This document shows, in pieces, positions 14,814 to 47,141 of a stretch of 64,000 nucleotides of DNA. This DNA comes from Bacteroidaceae bacterium (GTDB lineage: Bacteria > Bacteroidota > Bacteroidia > Bacteroidales > Bacteroidaceae). Location of the stretch: positions 1,756-65,755 of the forward strand of contig CAVJPC010000118.1 in NCBI GenBank assembly GCA_963651205.1, in the 5' to 3' direction. The notes under the pieces are model-generated. The model searched no databases. It was not told the DNA's origin and saw nothing but the letters and a program-made list of their open reading frames with translations. Both the position numbers and the translations under genes were made by a program. Each line of letters starts with the position of its first letter. Positions within the stretch are counted from its first letter, which is position 1.

Positions 14814-15012
14814 GGATTCAATTTCACAGCCGTTAAGTTATGTAACTAGGGAATTCATCCACTGTAGGGGCGCATTGAATGCGCCCGATAACCCTCCGAA
14901 AGGTGTATTTGTGGATGCATTACTCCCAAGGTCGTGACCGATGGTTCGGGCGGAAGCATTCCGCCCCTACAGTGGGTGGAAACGTCATTTGCAGCTTGGG
15001 TTTGGCAGCATG
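14814..15012. mobile_element. REP cluster 1: REP doublet inside degenerate IS231-like ends (decayed MITE)
   Basis: REPs 14864-14886 and 14948-14970 in inverted orientation; left end CACAGCCGTTAAGTTATG 14825-14842; right side aligns with 43321-43357. Confidence 0.7.
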
Positions 15013-16831: not shown

Positions 16832-16994
16832 TATCAAACAGCACCTAAAATCTATCAAAACAGGGGGTAAAAACTGATAATTAGCGGTTTTTACCCCCTA
16901 TTTTGATAGATTTTCCTTTGGTGTCCGTTCAAAATGCATTATCCTTGCAGCACGAGAGCATGGAAAAAGAATATAAACCTAAACTGAAAGACTT

Positions 16995-19499: not shown

Positions 19500-19806
19500 A
19501 TAGGGGCAGGGTCTGCCCCATAGCCGTCAAGCTAAGGAACACATCACCTGTAGGGGCGGAATGCTTCCACCCGAATACATCCACAAATACACTTTTCTGT
19601 ATGTATTCGGGCAGGTAAACCCTCCTATCCGTCAAGTTAAATTTCTTGGCGTTAAAACAGGACTGCGATTCATAGTCGTTAGTAACTTCATCCCCTCTTG
19701 AGACTACTCTTTCTACACATCGCGTTACCATTTGCTGTAGGGGCAGGGTCTGCCTGCCCGAATACGTAAAGCGAACCGTTTTCGGGCGGGCAAACCCCGC
19801 CCTTAC
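19500..19806. mobile_element. REP cluster 2 with two nested IS231-like ends and a ~98-bp shared cargo segment
   Basis: Truncated REP 19500-19518, end 19519-19536, REP 19550-19572, truncated REP 19609-19623, end 19624-19641, REP doublet 19737-19759 and 19784-19806. Confidence 0.8.
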
Positions 19807-30702: not shown

Positions 30703-30861
30703 ATAGAGGCGGAGTTTGCCCCATCGTCTGACAGTTATGGGGGCGCTCACCCGAATACATTCTGAAAAGTGTATTTGTAGATGTATTCGGGCGACCGGAC
30801 GTCGCACCTACAGTAGATGTATTCTTTAGCCTGACGGTTATGCGATGTAATCCACCCCTAT
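30703..30861. mobile_element. REP cluster 3: inverted copy of the nested REP/IS231-like-end architecture with collapsed inner element
   Basis: Truncated REP 30703-30721, collapsed ends 30722-30739, REP 30789-30811, end 30825-30842 (minus), truncated REP 30843-30861. Confidence 0.7.
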
Positions 30862-31023: not shown

Positions 31024-31812
31024 ATGGCCGAGAAAGTTTTTCAAAAGATAGACAACTTCAATAAAGGCCGTAGAGAAGATGCGGGATTTTACGCAATCAG
31101 TGTTTCCACTCCTTACCGGTCATACTACGCTTTATGGCGTATATTTCCGGACAATACTTACTCCCCTCTGTTTATCCAGTCCCTGGCCATAACTTTTGAC
31201 GATGCGGCGGAACGTGCCTTTCAGTATTTGCAAAACTGCAATGTTTTGCTGAAAGTAAAGGATAATACTTTCTTTGAACCTTATTACGGAATTTCCGAAG
31301 ACATTGTTGCTTTTGGAAAATATCGCGGAAAAAGATTGGCGGAAGTATATTACATTGACCCCAACTATGTGCTCTGGCTGGCACATAAATTTGAACCCCG
31401 GAACCCCAGAGACAAGAAACTGGCGGTATTGGCAAAAGCTTTTGCCACTGTCCATTATGAAACGGTCATCAGAAAGCACCGTTTGCCTGCCGGAAGTCGT
31501 TTTATTGGGGAGCCCGGAGAAAAACTGACTGATTTACATCTGGAAGTTCTGGGGACAAGGTTACAACTGGATGCTTACAAGACAAAAGGGTACTATGTAG
31601 ACCAGAGTGTGCTAGCTGCCGACGCTGACGGTAACCGCTATACTTTTATTATTAAGGCAGCAACTCCCAGTATGTCACCGGATATGCTGAGTTGTTACAC
31701 CCGGAAAATAAACCCGCATGAAAGTCTGTATATCAAATCGGCCAAAGTCCTCTCTCATTATGAGAGCAAAGGAATTAAATGCACGCGCATAGGATACTTG
31801 AAATTCAAGTAG
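31024..31812 (+). CDS. Hypothetical protein with FGKY (DUF3820/QSregVF_b-like) motif and probable C-terminal OB fold
   Basis: VAFGKYRGKRLAEVYYIDPNYVLWL; beta-rich C-terminus. Start could be 30985. Confidence 0.65.
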   Translation: MAEKVFQKIDNFNKGRREDAGFYAISVSTPYRSYYALWRIFPDNTYSPLFIQSLAITFDDAAERAFQYLQNCNVLLKVKDNTFFEPYYGISEDIVAFGKYRGKRLAEVYYIDPNYVLWLAHKFEPRNPRDKKLAVLAKAFATVHYETVIRKHRLPAGSRFIGEPGEKLTDLHLEVLGTRLQLDAYKTKGYYVDQSVLAADADGNRYTFIIKAATPSMSPDMLSCYTRKINPHESLYIKSAKVLSHYESKGIKCTRIGYLKFK

Positions 31813-33295
31813 AAACCTGATTTGTCGGAATGGTAATGGCAAAATTAGTGCCTTTACCTTCTATAGAGGTTACGATAATTTCTCCCTGCATATGCTCTAT
31901 GATAGTTTTGCAGATAGAAAGTCCCAAACCGGCGCCCGGCTTGAATGAATCTACCTTGTAAAAGCGGTCGAATATATGTTCAAGTTTCTCTTTCGGCATG
32001 CCTATGCCTGTATCTTTTACATATATTTCTATTGTACCGTTGCAAGGTGCTTTGCATCCAAGTGTGATGCTGCCATATATGGTAAATTTAACGGCATTAT
32101 TTATCAAGTTGTTAATCACCTGTTTTAAACGGGTGGCATCGATCATTATTTCAGTATCTTTTTCCGGTAGTTGCAATTTGAACTCTATCTTTTGAGGTAT
32201 ATTTAATAACTGGCTTTGATAAATTTCCGATAGAATATGATTGAGCCATTGTTTTTGCTCCTTGAATTCAATAGAATTGGATTCTATTTTTGACATGTCA
32301 ATGATATCTGAAATCAATACCAGCAGCTGTTCGCAGTTCTTGTTGATGATGGAGACAAATTCTCTGCCTTCCGCACCACCCATTTCTATTTCTCCGCTGG
32401 CAAGCAGATTCGAGAAACCTACAATTGCATTGAGGGGAGTCCGGATTTCATGGCTCATATTGGCAAGAAACGCACTTTTCAATTTATCGCTTTGTTCTGC
32501 CTTGTCACGGGCAACCATCAGTTTTTCTTCTGCATTCTTATGCTCCTGTATGCTTTGGCAGGCCCCGATAATTCTATAAGGAGTGCCTTCTATTTGTTCC
32601 AGATATAATGACTGTACTTCAAACCACTCCCAAGTGCCGTCATTGTGTCTCAGCCTGTAAGCAAAAGCTTCGGTATTTAGATTTCCGGCTATCTGATTGG
32701 TCAGGGCGTTCATCAGTATATCCCGGTCGTCAGGATGCAGGCAGGCTGCAAATTCTTCTTCGGTCAGCGTATAGTCTTTGGTAGGTATATTAAAATGTTT
32801 GAACCAGCGTGCATCGATAATCATTTTCCTCTTTTCCATATCATAAAACCAGGGATAAATTTTCGTCAGGCTGAGTGCCATGTTTATGATATGCTGCTGG
32901 GTTAGTTCGCCTTCTATATTACGGAACGAAAGAACCAGCTGAGAGAGTTTCTTCTTTGTGAATACGCTGGCGATTCGTCCTTCGGCAATAAAGCGTATGT
33001 TTCGTAATTCACTTTTAATGAATGTACCTTTAGGAAAGTCGATGATTTTCTCTTCATGCTTTAGCTCTTCGATAAGCTCAGGAATAAGATTTTGATGGTT
33101 TTGTAAGATGGATATTATTTCGGATAGTTTTTTTCCTTTAAGTTCCATACTTTCCAAATTCAATTCATGGACAGCCTCATCGTTAATGCGCTCAATCGTA
33201 CCGTCTGCATCCATAAATATAAGGGCGGACGGCAAAATATTTAAGATCTGTTTGGATAATACTAACTGTCCTTTTATATAACTCATATTTTCCAT
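31805..33295 (-). CDS. PAS-domain sensor histidine kinase
   Basis: LHPDD PAS, FLANMSHEIRTPLNAI H-box, NLINNAVKF, DTGIG, GAGLGLSI. Confidence 0.93.
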   Translation of the reverse strand: MENMSYIKGQLVLSKQILNILPSALIFMDADGTIERINDEAVHELNLESMELKGKKLSEIISILQNHQNLIPELIEELKHEEKIIDFPKGTFIKSELRNIRFIAEGRIASVFTKKKLSQLVLSFRNIEGELTQQHIINMALSLTKIYPWFYDMEKRKMIIDARWFKHFNIPTKDYTLTEEEFAACLHPDDRDILMNALTNQIAGNLNTEAFAYRLRHNDGTWEWFEVQSLYLEQIEGTPYRIIGACQSIQEHKNAEEKLMVARDKAEQSDKLKSAFLANMSHEIRTPLNAIVGFSNLLASGEIEMGGAEGREFVSIINKNCEQLLVLISDIIDMSKIESNSIEFKEQKQWLNHILSEIYQSQLLNIPQKIEFKLQLPEKDTEIMIDATRLKQVINNLINNAVKFTIYGSITLGCKAPCNGTIEIYVKDTGIGMPKEKLEHIFDRFYKVDSFKPGAGLGLSICKTIIEHMQGEIIVTSIEGKGTNFAITIPTNQVST

Positions 33296-33378
33296 GCTTT
33301 TTGTTTTGATGTGTTCTTATTTTCTAAATCGAAGAATTGCCTGTCGTTGGGGATTGTATTTCTGTATTGTGTCCCTTC

Positions 33379-34302
33379 TTATTCTATCAGATTGGGAAAG
33401 ACTTTCAGAGTTCTGAATTTTCTAGGCGACATTCCGGTTATCCGTTTAAAAAAACGGGTGAATGAGGATGGAGTAGAAAAGTTCAGTTCATAACAAATCT
33501 CCTGAATAGTGAGGTTGGTAGAGATTAGTAGGGCTTTAGCCTCGATAATTACATAATTGTCAATCCAGTCACCAGCCAGTTTCCCGGTAACATCCCGGAT
33601 AATAGAAGACAAATACTTGGGGGTGAAACAAAGCTGCTCTGCATAAAAAGAAATGTCTCTTTCTTTGTAATGGTGGGTTTCAACCAGTTTCAGGAACCGC
33701 TTGAATATTTCTTCTTTATGCGGCAGGTTTTTCTTCTTTATTTCTATATGTTTTAACAGGAGCTGGCATACTTCATAAAATGTGGCTTGTATCAGATATT
33801 GTATGGTAAAGTTGCGAAACAGATTATTCTCTTCGCTGATTTTTTTATAGAGCAATACATGATATGTTTTCAGTAATTCTGTTTCTGTAATATTCAAATC
33901 GGCGCATGGATGATTTTTTAGAGGGATTAAAAGAGACATCATTTTATAAAAATTGTCTCGTGTATCAAAATACTTATTGGATATCATGATGAGATGCGCT
34001 CTGTAGTCTTCACTTACCTCGTTATATTTTATGATTTGGTTGGGCATCATCATTAATAATGTGTTTTCCTTAGTAGTATGTTTGATGGAATCTATTTCTA
34101 CTTCGGAAGTCCCAGCCAGGCAAAGTACGAATGAAGTGTATGTTGTTTTGTATGAATTATTATAAAACAAAGGAAAAGTATGTTGGTTGCGAATGAAATC
34201 TTTTCCAGTATTATTATAAATGATGAAATCATCGGAAAAGTAATCTGCATTGGCGAAGAAATCAGTATTCCAAATATCTATGTCGGTACGTCCTTTTATC
34301 AT
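33379..34302 (-). CDS. AraC-family transcriptional regulator
   Basis: FYAEQLCFTPKYLS, IQEICYELNFSTPSSFTRFFKRITGMSP. Confidence 0.92.
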   Translation of the reverse strand: MIKGRTDIDIWNTDFFANADYFSDDFIIYNNTGKDFIRNQHTFPLFYNNSYKTTYTSFVLCLAGTSEVEIDSIKHTTKENTLLMMMPNQIIKYNEVSEDYRAHLIMISNKYFDTRDNFYKMMSLLIPLKNHPCADLNITETELLKTYHVLLYKKISEENNLFRNFTIQYLIQATFYEVCQLLLKHIEIKKKNLPHKEEIFKRFLKLVETHHYKERDISFYAEQLCFTPKYLSSIIRDVTGKLAGDWIDNYVIIEAKALLISTNLTIQEICYELNFSTPSSFTRFFKRITGMSPRKFRTLKVFPNLIE

Positions 34303-36364: not shown

Positions 36365-36470
36365 TCCCGGCTAAGGATAACGTCCACCCGTAGGGGCGGG
36401 GTTTGCCCGCCCGAATACAAAAAGCGAACCATTATCGGGCGGGCAAACCCCGCCCCTACAGGTGGCTATG
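36365..36470. repeat. REP cluster 4: REP doublet with remnants of both IS231-like ends
   Basis: REPs 36390-36412 and 36437-36459 are exact inverted copies; TCCCGGCTAAGG 36365-36376 and GGCTATG 36464-36470. Confidence 0.8.
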
Positions 36471-37599: not shown

Positions 37600-37710
37600 T
37601 CTCTTTTTATCTGTTTGTTTTTAATTTAAGTTCCTTAAATGGTCATTGCGATCCTCCACCTTTTAAAGCTGCTCTTTCTACAACTCTTTTTCATATTTTT
37701 ACAGCACTGT

Positions 37711-37955
37711 CATTTCGCTTTCGTCCACTGTAGGGGCGCATTGAATGCGCCCGAACCATCGGTCACGACCTTGGGAGTAATACATCCACAAATGCACTTT
37801 TCCTAGTGTTATCGGGCGGATTCAATCCGCCCCTACAGCGAAATGAGAGCGTTATTGGAAATGGTAACGCGATGTATAGAAAGAGTAGCTCAAGAGGGGA
37901 TGAAGTTACCACCGACTATGAATCGCAGTCCTGTTTTAACGCTAAAAATGTTAAC
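37711..37955. repeat. REP cluster 5: REP doublet plus ~97-bp cargo segment
   Basis: REPs 37730-37752 and 37814-37836; 37859-37955 is a reverse-complement match to 19636-19733. Confidence 0.8.
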
Positions 37956-39463: not shown

Positions 39464-39493
39464 TAACTGATCAAATTATTTTTCTTGTTCGCT

Positions 39494-39791
39494 GTAGGAA
39501 CGGAATGCTTCTCATAGCCGTCCGGCTAAGATATAAATCACGCTTCCGTCCACTGTAGGGGCGCATTCAATGCGCCCGATAACACTTCGAAAAGTGTATT
39601 TGTGGATGCATAACTCCCAAGGTCGTGGCCGTTGGTTCGGGCGGAAGCATTCCGCCCCTACGGTGAACGAGAACGCCATTTACCACCTTCGCTTGACAAC
39701 TATGTCTGGTTATCGTCCACTGTAGGGGCGGGGTTTGCCCGCCCGAATACACAAAGTAAACCGTTTTCGGGCAGGCAATCCCTGCCCCTAC
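39494..39791. mobile_element. REP cluster 6: 192-bp IS231-like MITE (39513-39704) carrying a REP doublet, plus a second doublet
   Basis: Truncated REP 39494-39512; ends CATAGCCGTCCGGCTAAG and CTTCGCTTGACAACTATG; REPs 39555-39577, 39639-39661, 39722-39744, 39769-39791. Confidence 0.8.
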
Positions 39792-39830
39792 AGCAAAAGA
39801 TAAGATAGTTACTTTGAACTTTTGGCCCGT

Positions 39831-40730
39831 CTATTCTTTTTTCATTTCACCATACATGCCGATCTTGATATATCCGTCATTTTTGACAGCTATCTTTACG
39901 GCATATACCAGATTGGCACGTTCATCCCGTGTCTGGATGTTTTTGGGCGTAAACTCCGATTTGTCCGAGATCCACGTGATAGTCCCCTCATATTCACGGT
40001 GGTCATCTTCTCCCAGATCTGAAAAGACCTTCACTTTATCTCCTAATTTCATCTCAGACAATTGATCGGCAGTGATGTAGGCACGTAAAAACAGACGTTG
40101 TACATCTGCCACTTTGAATAAAGGTTTTCCCTGAGTAGCCAATTCTCCGGTTTCGGTGTATTTTGCCAATACTGTTCCATGAATAGGACTGGTAATATGG
40201 CACTTGCGGAGCTGGTCATCCAGTTGGGCTACCTGTATCTCGTAAGCAGAACTTTCTTCCGTGACGCTCGCGTTCCCTCGTTGTAGAGTGGAAACCTGTG
40301 CTTCCAGCTGCTTTTTCAATACGGCAATCTGAGAATCAATATCATCTACCTGCTTCCGGGTGGCTGCATTCTCTTTCAGCAGGTTCTCCGTGCGTCTTCT
40401 TTCATATTCAGCCTTGCTGATTTGTTCTTTCGTAGCGGCTATCTGCTTGTTGATGTCCATACTTTTATTGGCGACAGCTTTTCCGCTGGCCAGCAACTGC
40501 ATCTTTTTCAGATAGAGTTGCAAGGTGTCTATGTACCCTACTTCTTCACCAGCCTTCAATAATTGCCCTTCTTCCACATTAAACTGCATGATCTTGCCAT
40601 TGGCTTCCGAAGACACAATCACTTCGGTAGCTTCGAATGTACCCGATGCATCATAATCGCCTTTTCTGTTTCCGCAGGAGGATAAGCCCAGCAGAATGGC
40701 GGCGAACAGGAGATATTTACTTGTTCTCAT
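39831..40730 (-). CDS. HlyD-family membrane fusion lipoprotein
   Basis: Lipobox LSSC, SGTFEATEV, SEFTPKNIQT...LVYAVK. Confidence 0.92.
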   Translation of the reverse strand: MRTSKYLLFAAILLGLSSCGNRKGDYDASGTFEATEVIVSSEANGKIMQFNVEEGQLLKAGEEVGYIDTLQLYLKKMQLLASGKAVANKSMDINKQIAATKEQISKAEYERRRTENLLKENAATRKQVDDIDSQIAVLKKQLEAQVSTLQRGNASVTEESSAYEIQVAQLDDQLRKCHITSPIHGTVLAKYTETGELATQGKPLFKVADVQRLFLRAYITADQLSEMKLGDKVKVFSDLGEDDHREYEGTITWISDKSEFTPKNIQTRDERANLVYAVKIAVKNDGYIKIGMYGEMKKE

Positions 40731-42015
40731 ATTGATTGGTTGTATATTTTAATTCATAAATAGCTGATAATAACTGAATCTCATGCAGAATCTTGTCCTG
40801 TTTGGCAAGATCCTCGGCAGTCACCTCGCGAAGCATTTCCGTGACGGTCAGTGTTCCGTTGGCAACTTTTGCCTGGGCAGATTTCCGGATGTTGTTGCGC
40901 AGGCTGATAATCTCGTCATCGTTCTTCATCAGTTCTGCCAGTTTCTTTATTTCACTGTTGTTTTGGGTGACTTCCAGATGAGTGTTGAACAGGAAAGTTT
41001 CTTTCTGTACATTCACATCTTGCTGATTCAGTGTCAGTTGACGGGATTCGTTCTTGCGTGTATATAAATTGCCGAAGTTCCAGGAAAGACGTACTCCTGC
41101 AACATAATAAGTTGAAAATTCGTTCTTCAGCATATTCAGCCCCGGATTGCCGTAAGCTCCTTGTACAAACAGACCTAACTGGGGAAGGTTTTTGGCGGCA
41201 AGTTGTTTGCGCCGGGCTTCCAGTTGCAGGTCCTGGGCGGCAAAAAGATCAAGTTCCGGACGTCGGATTAATTCCGCAGAGTAAGTTCCATCTATATATA
41301 ATAAGGTATTCACATCCGGCTTCTTCAGTGACTCCCCAGTTAATGGAGTGGGGTGGTTAATCATTATTTTCAGCATCTCGCTGTAAGCGCGATGTGTGGC
41401 TTCCAGTGTATGGCGCTGCTGTATGTTGTTCAATTGCTCCACCTTTACGGCATCCAAATCGGCTTGGTTGGCGGTGCCGTTTTTTACATAGGCTTTTACA
41501 TTATCGTAATTCCGTTGCAATTCTTCCTGCATGGCCCCGTTTTGCCCCAACTGCTCTTCCAGCAGCAATATGCCAAAGAAAAGCTGGTTCACCCGTTCAT
41601 TGATGGCATACATATCCACTTCCAGCTTTTGCTTGTCAACTTCGGAAGAAGCACGGGTTACTTCTTTCCGGGCATGGATGTTCCCGCCATCCCACACCAC
41701 CTGATCCAGTTGCAGCATGGCCTGATACTGGTCTTTGCGCATACCCCGGATGTCGAGTTCGGGCAGGTCTACGGGAATTTCCGTCACATCCGATTGATAG
41801 CTGGCCTTGGCGGACAATGAAAATTGTGGCAGATACCCCTTGTTGGCGTTAGAAATATTATATTCTTGCGTCTTTTCAATTAGCCCGTACCGTTTGATCA
41901 GCGGATAATAGGCCTGGGCTTGCTGCTGACATTCTTCCAGCGTGAGTTCCTGTGCTTTTAAAAAGACAGGAGCGACACCGAGAAGGAATGCTGTGAGAAT
42001 GAATAACCTTTTCAT
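40717..42015 (-). CDS. TolC-family outer-membrane efflux protein
   Basis: Signal peptide, YLPQFSLS, VWDGG, LPQLGLF repeats; operon context. Confidence 0.9.
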   Translation of the reverse strand: MKRLFILTAFLLGVAPVFLKAQELTLEECQQQAQAYYPLIKRYGLIEKTQEYNISNANKGYLPQFSLSAKASYQSDVTEIPVDLPELDIRGMRKDQYQAMLQLDQVVWDGGNIHARKEVTRASSEVDKQKLEVDMYAINERVNQLFFGILLLEEQLGQNGAMQEELQRNYDNVKAYVKNGTANQADLDAVKVEQLNNIQQRHTLEATHRAYSEMLKIMINHPTPLTGESLKKPDVNTLLYIDGTYSAELIRRPELDLFAAQDLQLEARRKQLAAKNLPQLGLFVQGAYGNPGLNMLKNEFSTYYVAGVRLSWNFGNLYTRKNESRQLTLNQQDVNVQKETFLFNTHLEVTQNNSEIKKLAELMKNDDEIISLRNNIRKSAQAKVANGTLTVTEMLREVTAEDLAKQDKILHEIQLLSAIYELKYTTNQYENK

Positions 42016-42629
42016 TTTCTTAATCTGCTTAATATGATTTCTACATTTTCTTGCTTTCTGCGTTCCATGTACTGGTGATATTCTTCCCCTTTCTCTTCCA
42101 GAAACAAATGGATCAACGGATTGGCCACGAAGACAAAGATATTGAGAGATACCACGCTTATCATTAAATCCTCCGCTTTGACAGGCCGTACCGTTCCCCT
42201 GGCAATTTCTTCTTGTAATGAACGGTCAAGCAGTTTCACCGCCAGCAGAAAATTAGGAAACAGGGTTTTGCGGCAAACTTCTTTTCCACTTTCATTGACT
42301 AAAATTTCCCTGTATATAAATAAAGGTAAATCGGGGTTGGCCGCTAAAAGGTCAAAGTGTGCTTCAATGCTGCATTTCACTTTTTCCAGAAAAGGCAGTG
42401 ACTCGTCTACACGAGATAGAAAGGTGTCTGCCAGTTGCCTGGCCTTCTCTTCAAATACTTTGTTGAACAGATTCTCTTTTGTACGGAAATAATAATGCAA
42501 CATGGCATGGGTAACTCCTGCTTCCTTTGCTATTTCTGTGGTCTTGCTTCCGGAGAATCCTTTCTTAAGAAATTCTTTCTCAGCAGCTTTCAGTATGGCT
42601 TGTTCTGTATTACTTGATTCTTCTTTCAT
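42012..42629 (-). CDS. TetR/AcrR-family regulator
   Basis: ILKAAEKEFLKKGF...EIAKEAGVTHAMLHYYFRTKENLF. Confidence 0.93.
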   Translation of the reverse strand: MKEESSNTEQAILKAAEKEFLKKGFSGSKTTEIAKEAGVTHAMLHYYFRTKENLFNKVFEEKARQLADTFLSRVDESLPFLEKVKCSIEAHFDLLAANPDLPLFIYREILVNESGKEVCRKTLFPNFLLAVKLLDRSLQEEIARGTVRPVKAEDLMISVVSLNIFVFVANPLIHLFLEEKGEEYHQYMERRKQENVEIILSRLRK

Positions 42630-42769
42630 GTTATCATATATGTTTAACAGGATTGTTAGTAAACGCAAATGTATAGGGAATAAATGAAAATTGCAAATAG
42701 ATAGGAGGAAAATTTTGTTTCGGGCTTGTTATTAAGTGTTTTTATATGGAAGGTTAGTCCTTTCTGTAT

Positions 42770-42920
42770 GGAAGACTAAGCACTTTTATCCTTTTATGTG
42801 CTATCTCCCAAGGTTTGGGAGTTAACTCCAAGCAGTTTGGAGTTAACTCTATAAGGCTTGGAGATAACTCCAAAATACTATGGAGATAGAACATGACCTG
42901 ATAAAAAGTCTTAGTCTTCC
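42770..42920. repeat. 151-bp imperfect palindrome containing a 21-bp-period array of GGAGWTAACTCC
   Basis: Ends GGAAGACTAAG (42770) and CTTAGTCTTCC (42910); units at 42797, 42818, 42839, 42860, 42882. Confidence 0.7.
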
Positions 42921-43066
42921 TGATAAAAAGCCTTGGATATATAATAGAAAAGGATTAGATGGCCGGAAGAAGATTGAAAAAGTATGGGGTGAAGAGATTG
43001 AAAGAGCATCCTGTCTATCCTTTCTACCAATCTCATTTAACACTTCCGATAGGGCTGTCAATTACT

Positions 43067-43376
43067 GTAGGAGCGGATTGAACCCCGCAGCCGTCAAGCT
43101 AAGGGACACATCCACTGTAGGGGCGACGTCCGGTCGCCTGAATGCATCCGCAAATCCACCTTTCAGTGTGTTGTCGGGCGGATTCAATCCCATAGCCGTC
43201 AAGCTAAGGGATTAATGGCGTTCCCGTCCACCGTAGGGGCGCATTGAATGCGCCCGATAACACTCCGAAAAGTATATTTGTGGATGCATTCGGGCGGAAG
43301 CATTCCGCCCCTACAGTGGGTGGAAACGCCATTTGCCGGCTTAACCTGACGGCTATGGGGCAAACCCCGCCCCTAC
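43067..43376. mobile_element. REP cluster 7: nested IS231-like MITEs; inner 167-bp element 43191-43357 carries a REP doublet
   Basis: Truncated REP 43067-43085, end 43086-43105, REP 43117-43139, truncated REP 43176-43190, end 43191-43210, REPs 43233-43255 and 43292-43314, end 43340-43357 (minus), truncated REP 43358-43376. Confidence 0.85.
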
Positions 43377-43455
43377 AGCTAAAACGCTACCGGAAATATG
43401 AATGGAGAAGTGTAGAAAGAATACATCATAAAAGGAATTTTCCCTTTCACACAGT

Positions 43456-46022: not shown

Positions 46023-47141
46023 ATGAAGAAATACGTATATATATTATTGCTTTTAGCATCGGTCAGCACATGGGCCACCGCGCAGATAAAAATTGGAAAT
46101 TATACTTTTAAAGACGGCGGCGAATATACCGGGGAGCTGAAAGGTAGAAAACCCAACGGTAAAGGAAAGACAACCTACAAGAACGGCAACATCTATGAAG
46201 GGCAGTATGTAAAAGGTAAACGCGAAGGAGACGGAACGTACACTTTCCATGACGGTGAAAAGTATGTGGGGCAGTGGTTCCAGGACCAGCAGCATGGCAA
46301 CGGTACCTATTATTTTATGAACAATAACCGCTATGAAGGAATGTGGTTTGCCGATTACCAGCAGGGTGAAGGTACTATGTACTATTATAACGGAGACATT
46401 TATATAGGCAACTGGTATCAGGACAAACGTAGCGGCAAAGGTACGTATACTTGGAAGGCGGGAGCCAAATATGAAGGTGAGTGGAAAGAGGATAAGAAGA
46501 ACGGACAAGGCACTATGGTGTGGCCCGACCAGTCAAAATATGAAGGCGACTGGACGGATGATGCACGCGACGGAAAAGGTACATTTTACTATGTCAACGG
46601 TGATAAATATGTTGGCGACTGGAAAGATGATGTGCAGCATGGAAAGGGCATTTATTATTTTAACAGTGGCGACCGCTACGAAGGAGACTATATAGACGGT
46701 GAACGCACCGGACAAGGAATATATATACATAAGAACGGTGACAAGTATGTAGGGCAGTTCAAGAATGGCGAACAGCATGGAACCGGAACCTTTACATGGG
46801 CCAACGGTGCCGTGTACGAAGGTCAGTGGGTGAACAATCAGCGTAGCGGTAAAGGACATTACATCTGGGCAAACGGTGACGACTATGAAGGGGACTGGAA
46901 AAATAACATGGCCGATGGAGAAGGTACTTTGCGCACAGCCGATGGAACCAAATATAAAGGTCATTTCGTGAAAGGCAAGGAAGACGGCAAAGGTGTACTG
47001 GAAGATAAAAATGGGGTACGCTATGACGGATTCTTCAAGCAAGGCAAAAAACACGGGGCTTTTGTGGAAACCGATAAGAATGGAAATGTAATCCGTAAAG
47101 GTGTCTATAAATTTGGAACACTGGATGCGGAACAAAAATAA
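46023..47141 (+). CDS. Secreted MORN-repeat protein
   Basis: Signal peptide; about 14 tandem 23-aa YEGxWxxxxxxGxGTY repeats. Confidence 0.92.
   Translation: MKKYVYILLLLASVSTWATAQIKIGNYTFKDGGEYTGELKGRKPNGKGKTTYKNGNIYEGQYVKGKREGDGTYTFHDGEKYVGQWFQDQQHGNGTYYFMNNNRYEGMWFADYQQGEGTMYYYNGDIYIGNWYQDKRSGKGTYTWKAGAKYEGEWKEDKKNGQGTMVWPDQSKYEGDWTDDARDGKGTFYYVNGDKYVGDWKDDVQHGKGIYYFNSGDRYEGDYIDGERTGQGIYIHKNGDKYVGQFKNGEQHGTGTFTWANGAVYEGQWVNNQRSGKGHYIWANGDDYEGDWKNNMADGEGTLRTADGTKYKGHFVKGKEDGKGVLEDKNGVRYDGFFKQGKKHGAFVETDKNGNVIRKGVYKFGTLDAEQK

Follow-up and report, generated by a model that had tools for sequence, protein, structure and literature searches.

Composite elements in the window

We analysed a 64,000-nucleotide stretch (the window; positions 1756-65755 of contig C118) of the Bacteroidaceae assembly G000, which comprises 5.88 Mb in 240 contigs and is 95.1% complete with 7.3% contamination. 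To judge from the named carriers of the ends described below and from the labels of sequencing runs, the organism probably belongs to the Bacteroidales and lives in the gut. The window contains short elements in which two inverted ends resembling those of the insertion sequence (IS) IS231 enclose a pair of small palindromic repeats, the repetitive extragenic palindromes (REPs) of a family that we call GTAG. We refer to the 18-bp IS231-like end as E1 and to an IS50-like end as E2. A composite consists of an E1 end, an arm, a REP doublet, a second arm and another E1 end, and occurs in three size classes: A (166-168 bp), B (191-192 bp) and C (155-157 bp). Two composites, near 43 kb and 39.5 kb, are the focal copies of this work. 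They and the sequences that they adjoin are as follows (a strand is given where one applies).

43191..43357, class A composite of 167 bp, one of 15 copies of 166-168 bp
43191..43208, + strand, left E1 end, 18 bp, with the same sequence as the family consensus and as one end of the intact IS4-family elements L081, L105 and L126
43340..43357, - strand, right E1 end, 18 bp, 16/18 to the consensus
43233..43314, cargo: inverted GTAG REP pair with cores GCATTGAATGC and GGAATGCTTCC, a 36-bp spacer and extended complementary arms
43174..43190, - strand, inner half of the struck REP; a class C element carries this REP as its second cargo repeat
43358..43376, - strand, outer REP half with a different core, GGGGTTTGCCC; the flanks mismatch
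43086..43190, + strand, left part of the class C element (type of 155-157 bp), made up of an E1 end, a short arm, a REP, the spacer and the interrupted REP
43015..43424, outer 410-bp shell with decayed IS50-like (E2) ends; the class C end has its target in the cargo REP of this shell at 43067
39513..39704, class B composite of 192 bp, with the class A build plus a 25-bp spacer insert and REPs at 39555-39577 and 39639-39661; one of 8 copies of 191-192 bp
39494..39512, + strand, outer half of the target REP at the left junction, with a decayed GGAATGCTTCC core
39722..39791, 70-bp REP doublet without E1 ends, adjoining the class B element

A preliminary description of this DNA had presented both focal copies as mini-elements with IS231-like ends around an intact REP doublet with extended arms, and this build was confirmed at each. 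The ends of the 43-kb copy agree with each other at 16/18 positions and with the family consensus at 18/18 and 16/18, and the element forms one long hairpin (z of -7.9 against 200 shuffles). It is enclosed by two further shells that had been overlooked, the class C element whose end lies at 43086 and the IS50-like shell at 43015-43424. The ends of the 39.5-kb copy agree with each other at only 13/18 positions (16/18 and 15/18 to the consensus), and it folds less well than the 43-kb copy (z of -3.4).

We compared the region with contigs of three other strains, taken from three runs of three studies. These contigs show scattered single-base differences. They cross the 39.5-kb element's left junction and the 43-kb element's right junction and continue into unique sequence; those two junctions are therefore not assembly artefacts. 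The relatives of G000 are 79-87% identical to it, which is too distant for comparison at the level of single bases. In three of them (G068, G028 and G131) the spacer at 39464-39830 is wholly absent and its flanking genes abut. In the window this repeat cluster of about 370 bp lies between an efflux adaptor gene and an ABC ATPase gene and may affect the operon transcript.

A family of composites throughout the genome

At three or fewer mismatches the E1 18-mer has 161 matches in G000, compared to 1 to 6 for each of 10 shuffled motifs, so its abundance is not due to chance. With a weight matrix we identified 192 ends, which form 53 pairs and leave 86 unpaired. The preliminary description had left room for most paired ends being devoid of REPs. 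The enumeration gave the opposite result: 35 of the 53 pairs enclose a GTAG doublet (12 of 155-157 bp, 15 of 166-168 bp and 8 of 191-192 bp). A further 15 pairs are class D elements or their derivatives, whose cargo is a different palindrome pair and whose element form is 217 bp (two of these 15 are repeat entries that stem from the duplication between contigs C81 and C112), and the remaining 3 are irregular. E1 elements of 78-96 bp with little or no cargo are also present.

Each GTAG REP consists of GTAGGGGC, an 11-bp near-palindromic core and then GCCC. G000 holds 143 GTAG doublets, mostly of 70, 82 or 107 bp, in which two inverted REPs stand at conserved spacing; E1 ends lie on both sides of 35, on one side of 32 and on neither side of 76. 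The 35 composites (155-192 bp) have no transposase gene, and their overlapping open reading frames have no NCBIfam match. Class A and B copies are 91-92% identical to their consensus and about 85%, at most 92%, identical to one another, which points to these composites being old.

It is scarcely credible that the mosaics are assembly artefacts of collapsed repeats. The contamination of the assembly could be taken that way, as could contigs C81 and C112, which share 48.5 kb at 99.98% identity and diverge directly after a class D copy, the result of a strain mixture or a mis-join. However, pairwise identity among class A and B copies is only about 85%, G068, G028 and G131 keep the gene order over both focal sites, the contigs of other strains cross two of the junctions, and the same classes occur in G111, another genome of the genus, and in metagenomes.

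The ends are IS231-like

The E1 consensus fits the signature CAT-------AA--TAA, which Table 1 of PMC2266710 gives for the IS231 subgroup together with a 10-12-bp direct repeat. Perfect repeats of 10-12 bp flank 15 of 48 evaluable small elements as well as L105. At least 119 stretches with E1 ends occur in other bacterial contigs, whose named carriers include Bacteroidota, Desulfobulbus and Legionella. Among the matches listed are three complete elements of 1517-1567 bp (L081, L105 and L126), and both of the intact elements tested encode an IS4-family transposase over the NF033592 cut-off. The best plasmid hits of one intact element were elements of the Bacillus cereus group, the named ones being ISBce4, at about 33% identity. 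These data support the earlier assignment of the E1 ends to the IS4 family and, within it, to a predicted IS231-subgroup type; subgroup ISH8 also has CAT ends.

IS4 hits were obtained in G111, G031, G030, G002, G043, G048, G054, G060 and G046, none of them with E1 ends. Many E1 ends in G111 lie at contig breaks, with unique sequence on their inner side; this suggests that the genome has a multicopy parent element that was not assembled. A full parent element was not found with the G111 contig-end sequences in plasmids, viral contigs or 401 genomes of the order.

Insertion into REP cores and target duplications

Of 149 strong E1 ends, 112 adjoin a REP half that scores above the 99th percentile of background, and none adjoins the second (class D) palindrome. 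The insertion cut falls at the REP core, and the core is the duplicated sequence in class D (4/15 perfect; permutation mean 0.24). The two flanks of the composites match at a mean of 5.17 of 11 positions compared to 4.04 when permuted, a value that none of 5000 permutations reached, and the gapped score was 2.2 versus 0.6.

The preliminary description had proposed a search for perfect 11-bp duplications, and such copies exist. In G000 one lies at C62:108663 (p of 0.03 by permutation when taken alone). The G111 locus L262 is a 158-bp REP-doublet element with a perfect 11-bp duplication of a non-canonical core, and among 33 metagenome loci, five are paired GTAG-doublet elements, two of them with perfect duplications (L296, 12 bp; L308, 10 bp). 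L308 and L030 are inserted directly at the end of an element of the same family, and the duplication of L308 takes in the last bases of that end. At L054, L029 and L402 one flank is an inverted copy of the other instead of a direct one, which would fit a rewriting of one duplication copy by template switching.

The composites have probably moved as units

Fixed size classes, shared junctions, varied target cores and perfect duplications together argue that the composites have moved as units, as far as can be read from their sequences, although both focal copies are without a duplication and look old. The perfect 10-12-bp duplications of non-canonical sequence at L262, L296 and L308 are a signature of DDE transposition. 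[quoted passage not shown]

The composites had been described as a hybrid of REPIN and MITE, like MIC231 cassettes but with REP cargo. Their ends are shared with autonomous ISs, and their cargo has the inverted, evenly spaced REPs of a REPIN. MIC231 cassettes carry passenger genes between IS231 ends; the composites instead hold a non-coding palindrome pair and so fall outside such cassettes.

Several observations weigh against movement by an IS231-like transposase. No IS4 transposase cognate to E1 was detected over the cut-off in G000, and the L105 protein as a query gave no cognate transposase in G000, G111, G031, G028 or G068. Flanks at or below the 95th percentile, indistinguishable from background, were found at 26 of the 149 strong E1 ends. 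The target sequences on the two sides match at only 5/11 and 2/11 positions at the two focal copies. Perfect duplications are few in G000 (1/35 composites), and a match of at least 9/11 was found in only 2 of the 35, whereas 19-25 would be expected from decay at the rate of the ends and interiors, an excess erosion of the flanks. An exact empty allele of either focal element, which the preliminary description had proposed as a check, was present neither among the listed joints of the three other strains' contigs nor in relatives. Finally, a gene resembling a REP-associated tyrosine transposase (RAYT), described below, could have built or moved the mosaics.

One candidate for an empty allele was the orthologous spacer of G111. 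It carries an IS50-like shell with an intact doublet and has no E1 end; as both its position and its right core differ, it was rejected as an exact empty allele.

Two explanations for the mismatched flanks were also rejected. Plain decay predicts a match of 8.6-9.1/11, and 5.2/11 was seen. Genome rearrangement is not the cause at the two focal sites because gene order there is conserved in G068, G028 and G131. Local loss, by a mechanism that we can only propose, is the likely cause. By our own reading, outer arms lie on either side of 8 of the 14 paired IS50-like elements in G111, which means that the target spacer is gone, and the mismatched flanks at 43358-43376 are consistent with a later loss of the intervening DNA. 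Recombination and adjacent deletion are the explanations for non-matching repeats offered in passages of PMC1525189 and PMC11708052.

Alternatively, empty MITEs might have spread first and each gained its doublet independently, so that the composite never moved as a unit. The short elements with little or no cargo (78-96 bp in G000; L213) fit this idea, as do cases in which one shell holds different cargo (the IS982-like elements at C44:107720 and C219:21053; the 208-bp class in G111). However, within a class the junctions, arms and spacer are common to the copies and the length varies by only 1-2 bp, which would not be expected of independent insertions. Independent gain is therefore plausible for founders only, and as an account of the whole family it is very unlikely.

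A RAYT-like gene

One RAYT-like gene is present in G000 (C1, L005:1054-1644). It has an HUH motif and is 51-55% identical to four homologues in the genus, and its profile match (E of 7e-12, 45.5 bits) lies under the cut-off of 80. After the HUH motif it holds an in-frame REP doublet with a core found in the genome. A REP pair inside the coding sequence is reported for RAYTs of subclass 2.4 in the relevant part of PMC6006769, and the G000 gene matches this arrangement. It is likely the source of the REP family. The RAYT-like genes L191, L197 and L198 also have an in-frame doublet after the HUH motif, of REP types found in the genus, and the G000 copy reads FL where its relatives read WQ. A Y1 hit on C51 (L001) was rejected as a RAYT: by our own reading it is an IS200/IS605-like gene (or pair of genes) on a short contig, possibly a contaminant.

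This gene raises the possibility that RAYT or recombination moves the REP mosaics in the manner of bacterial interspersed mosaic elements, with the IS ends as old passengers and no DDE activity. We regard this as decidedly unlikely. The presence of the gene is compatible with it, as are the lack of a good duplication in 33 of the 35 composites, the 32 doublets with an E1 end on one side only, and the NF047646 (RAYT-family) match in seven of the nine genus genomes with at least 30 REP matches. On the other hand, copies resemble one another up to the 18-bp ends and no further, and the REP cores beside them vary, perfect 10-12-bp duplications of non-canonical sequence exist (L262, L296 and L308), and the G000 gene reaches only 45.5 bits where the cut-off is 80.

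Re-use of cargo REPs

According to the preliminary description, each insertion destroys one REP and delivers two new ones in a self-amplifying loop. Re-use of cargo does occur: seven E1 ends sit in a REP that is itself the cargo of another E1 end, including those at 43191 and 19624 of the window, and at L253 of G111 an end of presumed autonomous type lies within a cargo REP. Overall, 131 of 347 intact REP cores lie no more than 175 bp inside a REP-carrying E1 end. The loop therefore exists, but because insertion needs a pre-existing REP it enlarges clusters in place and cannot open new sites alone. The tally of minus one and plus two also does not hold in general, as the target doublets often look collapsed and 33 of the 35 composites are without a good duplication.

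A stronger claim would be that E1 insertion is the main engine of REP spread in G000, with a net gain per insertion. The fraction of cores inside E1 ends is in its favour. So is part of a comparison of REP numbers with ends and RAYT matches in 108 genomes of the genus, which are related to one another and in many cases incomplete: the two most REP-rich, G111 (631 REP matches) and G000 (342), are the only ones with many E1 and E2 ends. However, of the nine genomes with at least 30 REP matches, the other seven have 34-154 with 0-1 E1 ends, and G031 has 4 E1 ends and 2 REP matches. Two related genomes do not amount to a test, and an abundance of REPs may have led to an abundance of ISs rather than the reverse. 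Together with the dependence on pre-existing REPs, this makes a main role for the E1 loop unlikely.

REP-rich genomes without E1 and E2 were considered as RAYT-only controls. This use of them was weakened by 12 sampled doublets of G025, all bounded by another conserved terminus, GTGTCAAAA (L431-L442), which also bounds a doublet at C202:51546-51706 of G000.

Small elements were also selected in other genomes by end motif only (L029-L167). The interiors of 32 of 35 fold at z of -3 or below, and perfect 10-12-bp duplications flank 10 of 34 evaluable cases; six subterminal windows of the three intact elements fold at z of -3.6 to 0.3. When targets of such elements were rebuilt, 12 of 16 folded as hairpins. 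The cargo palindromes of elements elsewhere are unrelated to one another, and the one that was checked also occurs in many copies beyond the ends (34 matches in G043).

Other shells carry the REP doublet

The E2 end fits the IS50 signature CW------Y---CA-A, and its elements show the corresponding 8-9-bp repeat. E2 bounds a 1523-bp element (L355:872-2394) that encodes a Tn5-like transposase over the NF033590 cut-off, with Tn5 hits and one internal stop. In G000, 45 of 47 E2 ends enclose a GTAG REP, 19 adjoin a class D palindrome and none adjoins a GTAG half; perfect 9-bp duplications flank 2 of 13 pairs. G111 has 42 E2 motif matches, from which 20 regions were fetched. By our own reading, all 18 E2 loci among these are in class D-type palindromes and all have GTAG doublets, and perfect 8-9-bp repeats flank 3 of 14 pairs. 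E2 elements insert into the class D palindrome and carry GTAG REPs, and E1 elements insert into REPs and in class D carry that palindrome; the two families thus hold each other's targets, a pattern of reciprocal targeting. The nesting at 43015-43424 of the window is the reverse of that at C22:62973.

E2 shells with GTAG doublets were seen at 43015-43424, 37669-37888 and 19704 of the window, at C229:3314 and C174:53271 of G000, and at L394-L412 of G111. An IS50-like element occupies one site in G000 (C117:55458, 192 bp) and in G082 and G031 (L377 and L378; 83 bp, internally deleted), an insertion that is either old or laterally shared.

A third family of ends, which bounds an IS982 fragment, carries GTAG doublets into AT-rich DNA, and two of three such pairs have a 7-bp repeat by our own reading. 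IS982-like shells would thus offer the doublets a route to new sites. Those at C219:21053-21268 and C232:104033-104249 hold a GTAG doublet and have 7-bp AT-rich repeats, and the one at C44:107720-107914 has the same arms with another palindrome family as cargo. A further terminus, GAGGGCACTGAAAAAG, has GTAG doublets as cargo and REP cores as insertion sites, too (C160:74987-75139, C234:6909-7060 and C232:131840-132020).

With two further termini included, a shell or shared arm adjoins 113 of the 143 doublets and neither adjoins the other 30, a count in which the last motifs are loose. If DDE transposases spread REPs, the evidence favours several end families acting together over E1 alone. That such multi-shell spread is the main route for REP doublets in the genus is an idea that we put forward tentatively. 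One conceivable form of it, which we would not yet favour, is a cycle in which IS231-like and IS50-like elements feed each other, IS982-like and other ends seed AT-rich sites, and RAYT supplies only the founder doublet. It could also be speculated, with similar reserve, that the capture of palindrome pairs is a strategy that palindrome-targeting IS4 elements have evolved repeatedly across phyla.

Proposed history

The E1 ends would derive from an IS231-like insertion sequence of the IS4 family that prefers small palindromes. In G000, the E1 ends have struck the 11-bp GTAG REP core and duplicated it, as their junctions show. A few founders may then have gained a REP doublet and arms, probably by nested insertion and internal deletion or else because a doublet inserted itself into a MITE that had no cargo. 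Elements that resemble intermediates of the first route, on the way to classes A to C, are C11:119688 and C22:62973; in the latter E1 encloses half palindromes, these enclose E2, and E2 encloses a doublet. Ends and doublet were then copied together, as the fixed size classes, varied target cores and perfect duplications indicate, presumably by an IS231-like transposase acting in trans. The cargo REPs became new targets, as the Russian-doll clusters show. The flanks probably eroded or were deleted faster than the interior, through core slippage, adjacent deletion or template switching. The E1 family is one of several shells, beside those with IS50-like and IS982-like ends, and its REP-carrying classes in G000 look old and immobile.

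Relation to known systems

The nearest published structure is QMITE2 of Coxiella burnetii. In the account given in PMC5896051 it is a MITE of 150-190 bp that has terminal inverted repeats as well as direct repeats of 7-11 nt. Inside it lies a GTAG REP serving as an IS target, and its smaller copies are bare REPs. It differs in that its REP is the target of IS1111, and the passages on it name no cognate transposase and report no insertion into a REP. The ends of the G000 composites, in contrast, are attributable to an IS family, and the REPs into which they insert are of the kind that they carry.

Insertion at a fixed REP position is described for ISRm22 (IS4 family), ISPsy8, ISPa11, ISPpu9/10, IS1397 and IS621 in sections of PMC1525189 and PMC3184786. 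ISRm22, which is placed in subgroup IS4Sa in the tabulated part of PMC2266710, inserts at the palindrome axis, and 3 of its 9 copies have non-matching repeats. These ISs are, however, autonomous and in those sections are not described as carriers of REPs. The IS231 subgroup resembles the composites in end signature, 10-12-bp duplication, target preference and passenger DNA between the ends, according to the portion of PMC2266710 that deals with it. Its hosts there are almost all of the Bacillus cereus group, whereas the named E1 carriers include Bacteroidota, Desulfobulbus and Legionella, and the transposase is about 33% identical.

The inverted GTAG doublets, fixed spacing and single-copy RAYT-like gene recall REPIN-RAYT systems as outlined in parts of PMC3116915, bioRxiv 10.1101/2021.07.10.451892 and PMC6006769. 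In those parts REPINs (slow) and MITEs (fast) are treated as distinct and moved by different enzymes; in G000, on the other hand, most doublets lie within DDE-type ends. The text of a 2024 MITE review contains no whole-word REP, IS4 or IS231. In a mostly open-access literature we found no IS-ended element that carries its own REP target and no reciprocal shells of IS4 subgroups; ISfinder and the supplements of PMC2266710 and PMC3733652 lie outside this scope and may list such ends.

The relevant section of PMC3116915 names the spread of REPs as an issue that is central and unresolved. Our data suggest that ordinary transposases may copy repeats usually credited to another enzyme: most G000 doublets lie within DDE-type ends, and the duplications prove at least some DDE movement. 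If this is general, REP counts and population models mix two processes. DDE-driven spread is directly testable with ordinary IS4-family transposases. The elements also point to a palindrome-targeting IS231-like lineage outside Bacillus and to reciprocal nesting between two IS4 subgroups.

Other features of the window

The remaining repeats of these families in the window are as follows.

14825..15012, decayed class B copy; left end 14/18, right end 9/18
19500..19806, nested cluster: half REP, E1 end (19519), REP, class D E1 end (19624), half of the second palindrome (19692), E2 end (19704) and REP doublet
30789..30842, - strand, single E1 end with class C arm and REP
36390..36459, REP doublet with unrecognisable IS ends; the ends at 36365 and 36470 score 4/18 and 9/18
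37669..37888, 220-bp E2 (IS50-like) element with a REP doublet; its right flank is half a class D palindrome

The loci at 14825-15012 and 36365-36470 had both been taken for decayed composites. This is borne out for the first, while the second is at most a remnant of one.

Contigs of the three other strains skip a 1.5-kb gene region (31805-33295; window 31845-33377) and have 27 other bases instead, and beside it positions 33408-33603 are strongly divergent. Long inverted repeats outside the GTAG family occur at 42760-42930, where they are conserved in relatives, and at 16847-16914. Repeats with a 69-bp period at 46467-46895 lie within a coding region and are presumably MORN-like.

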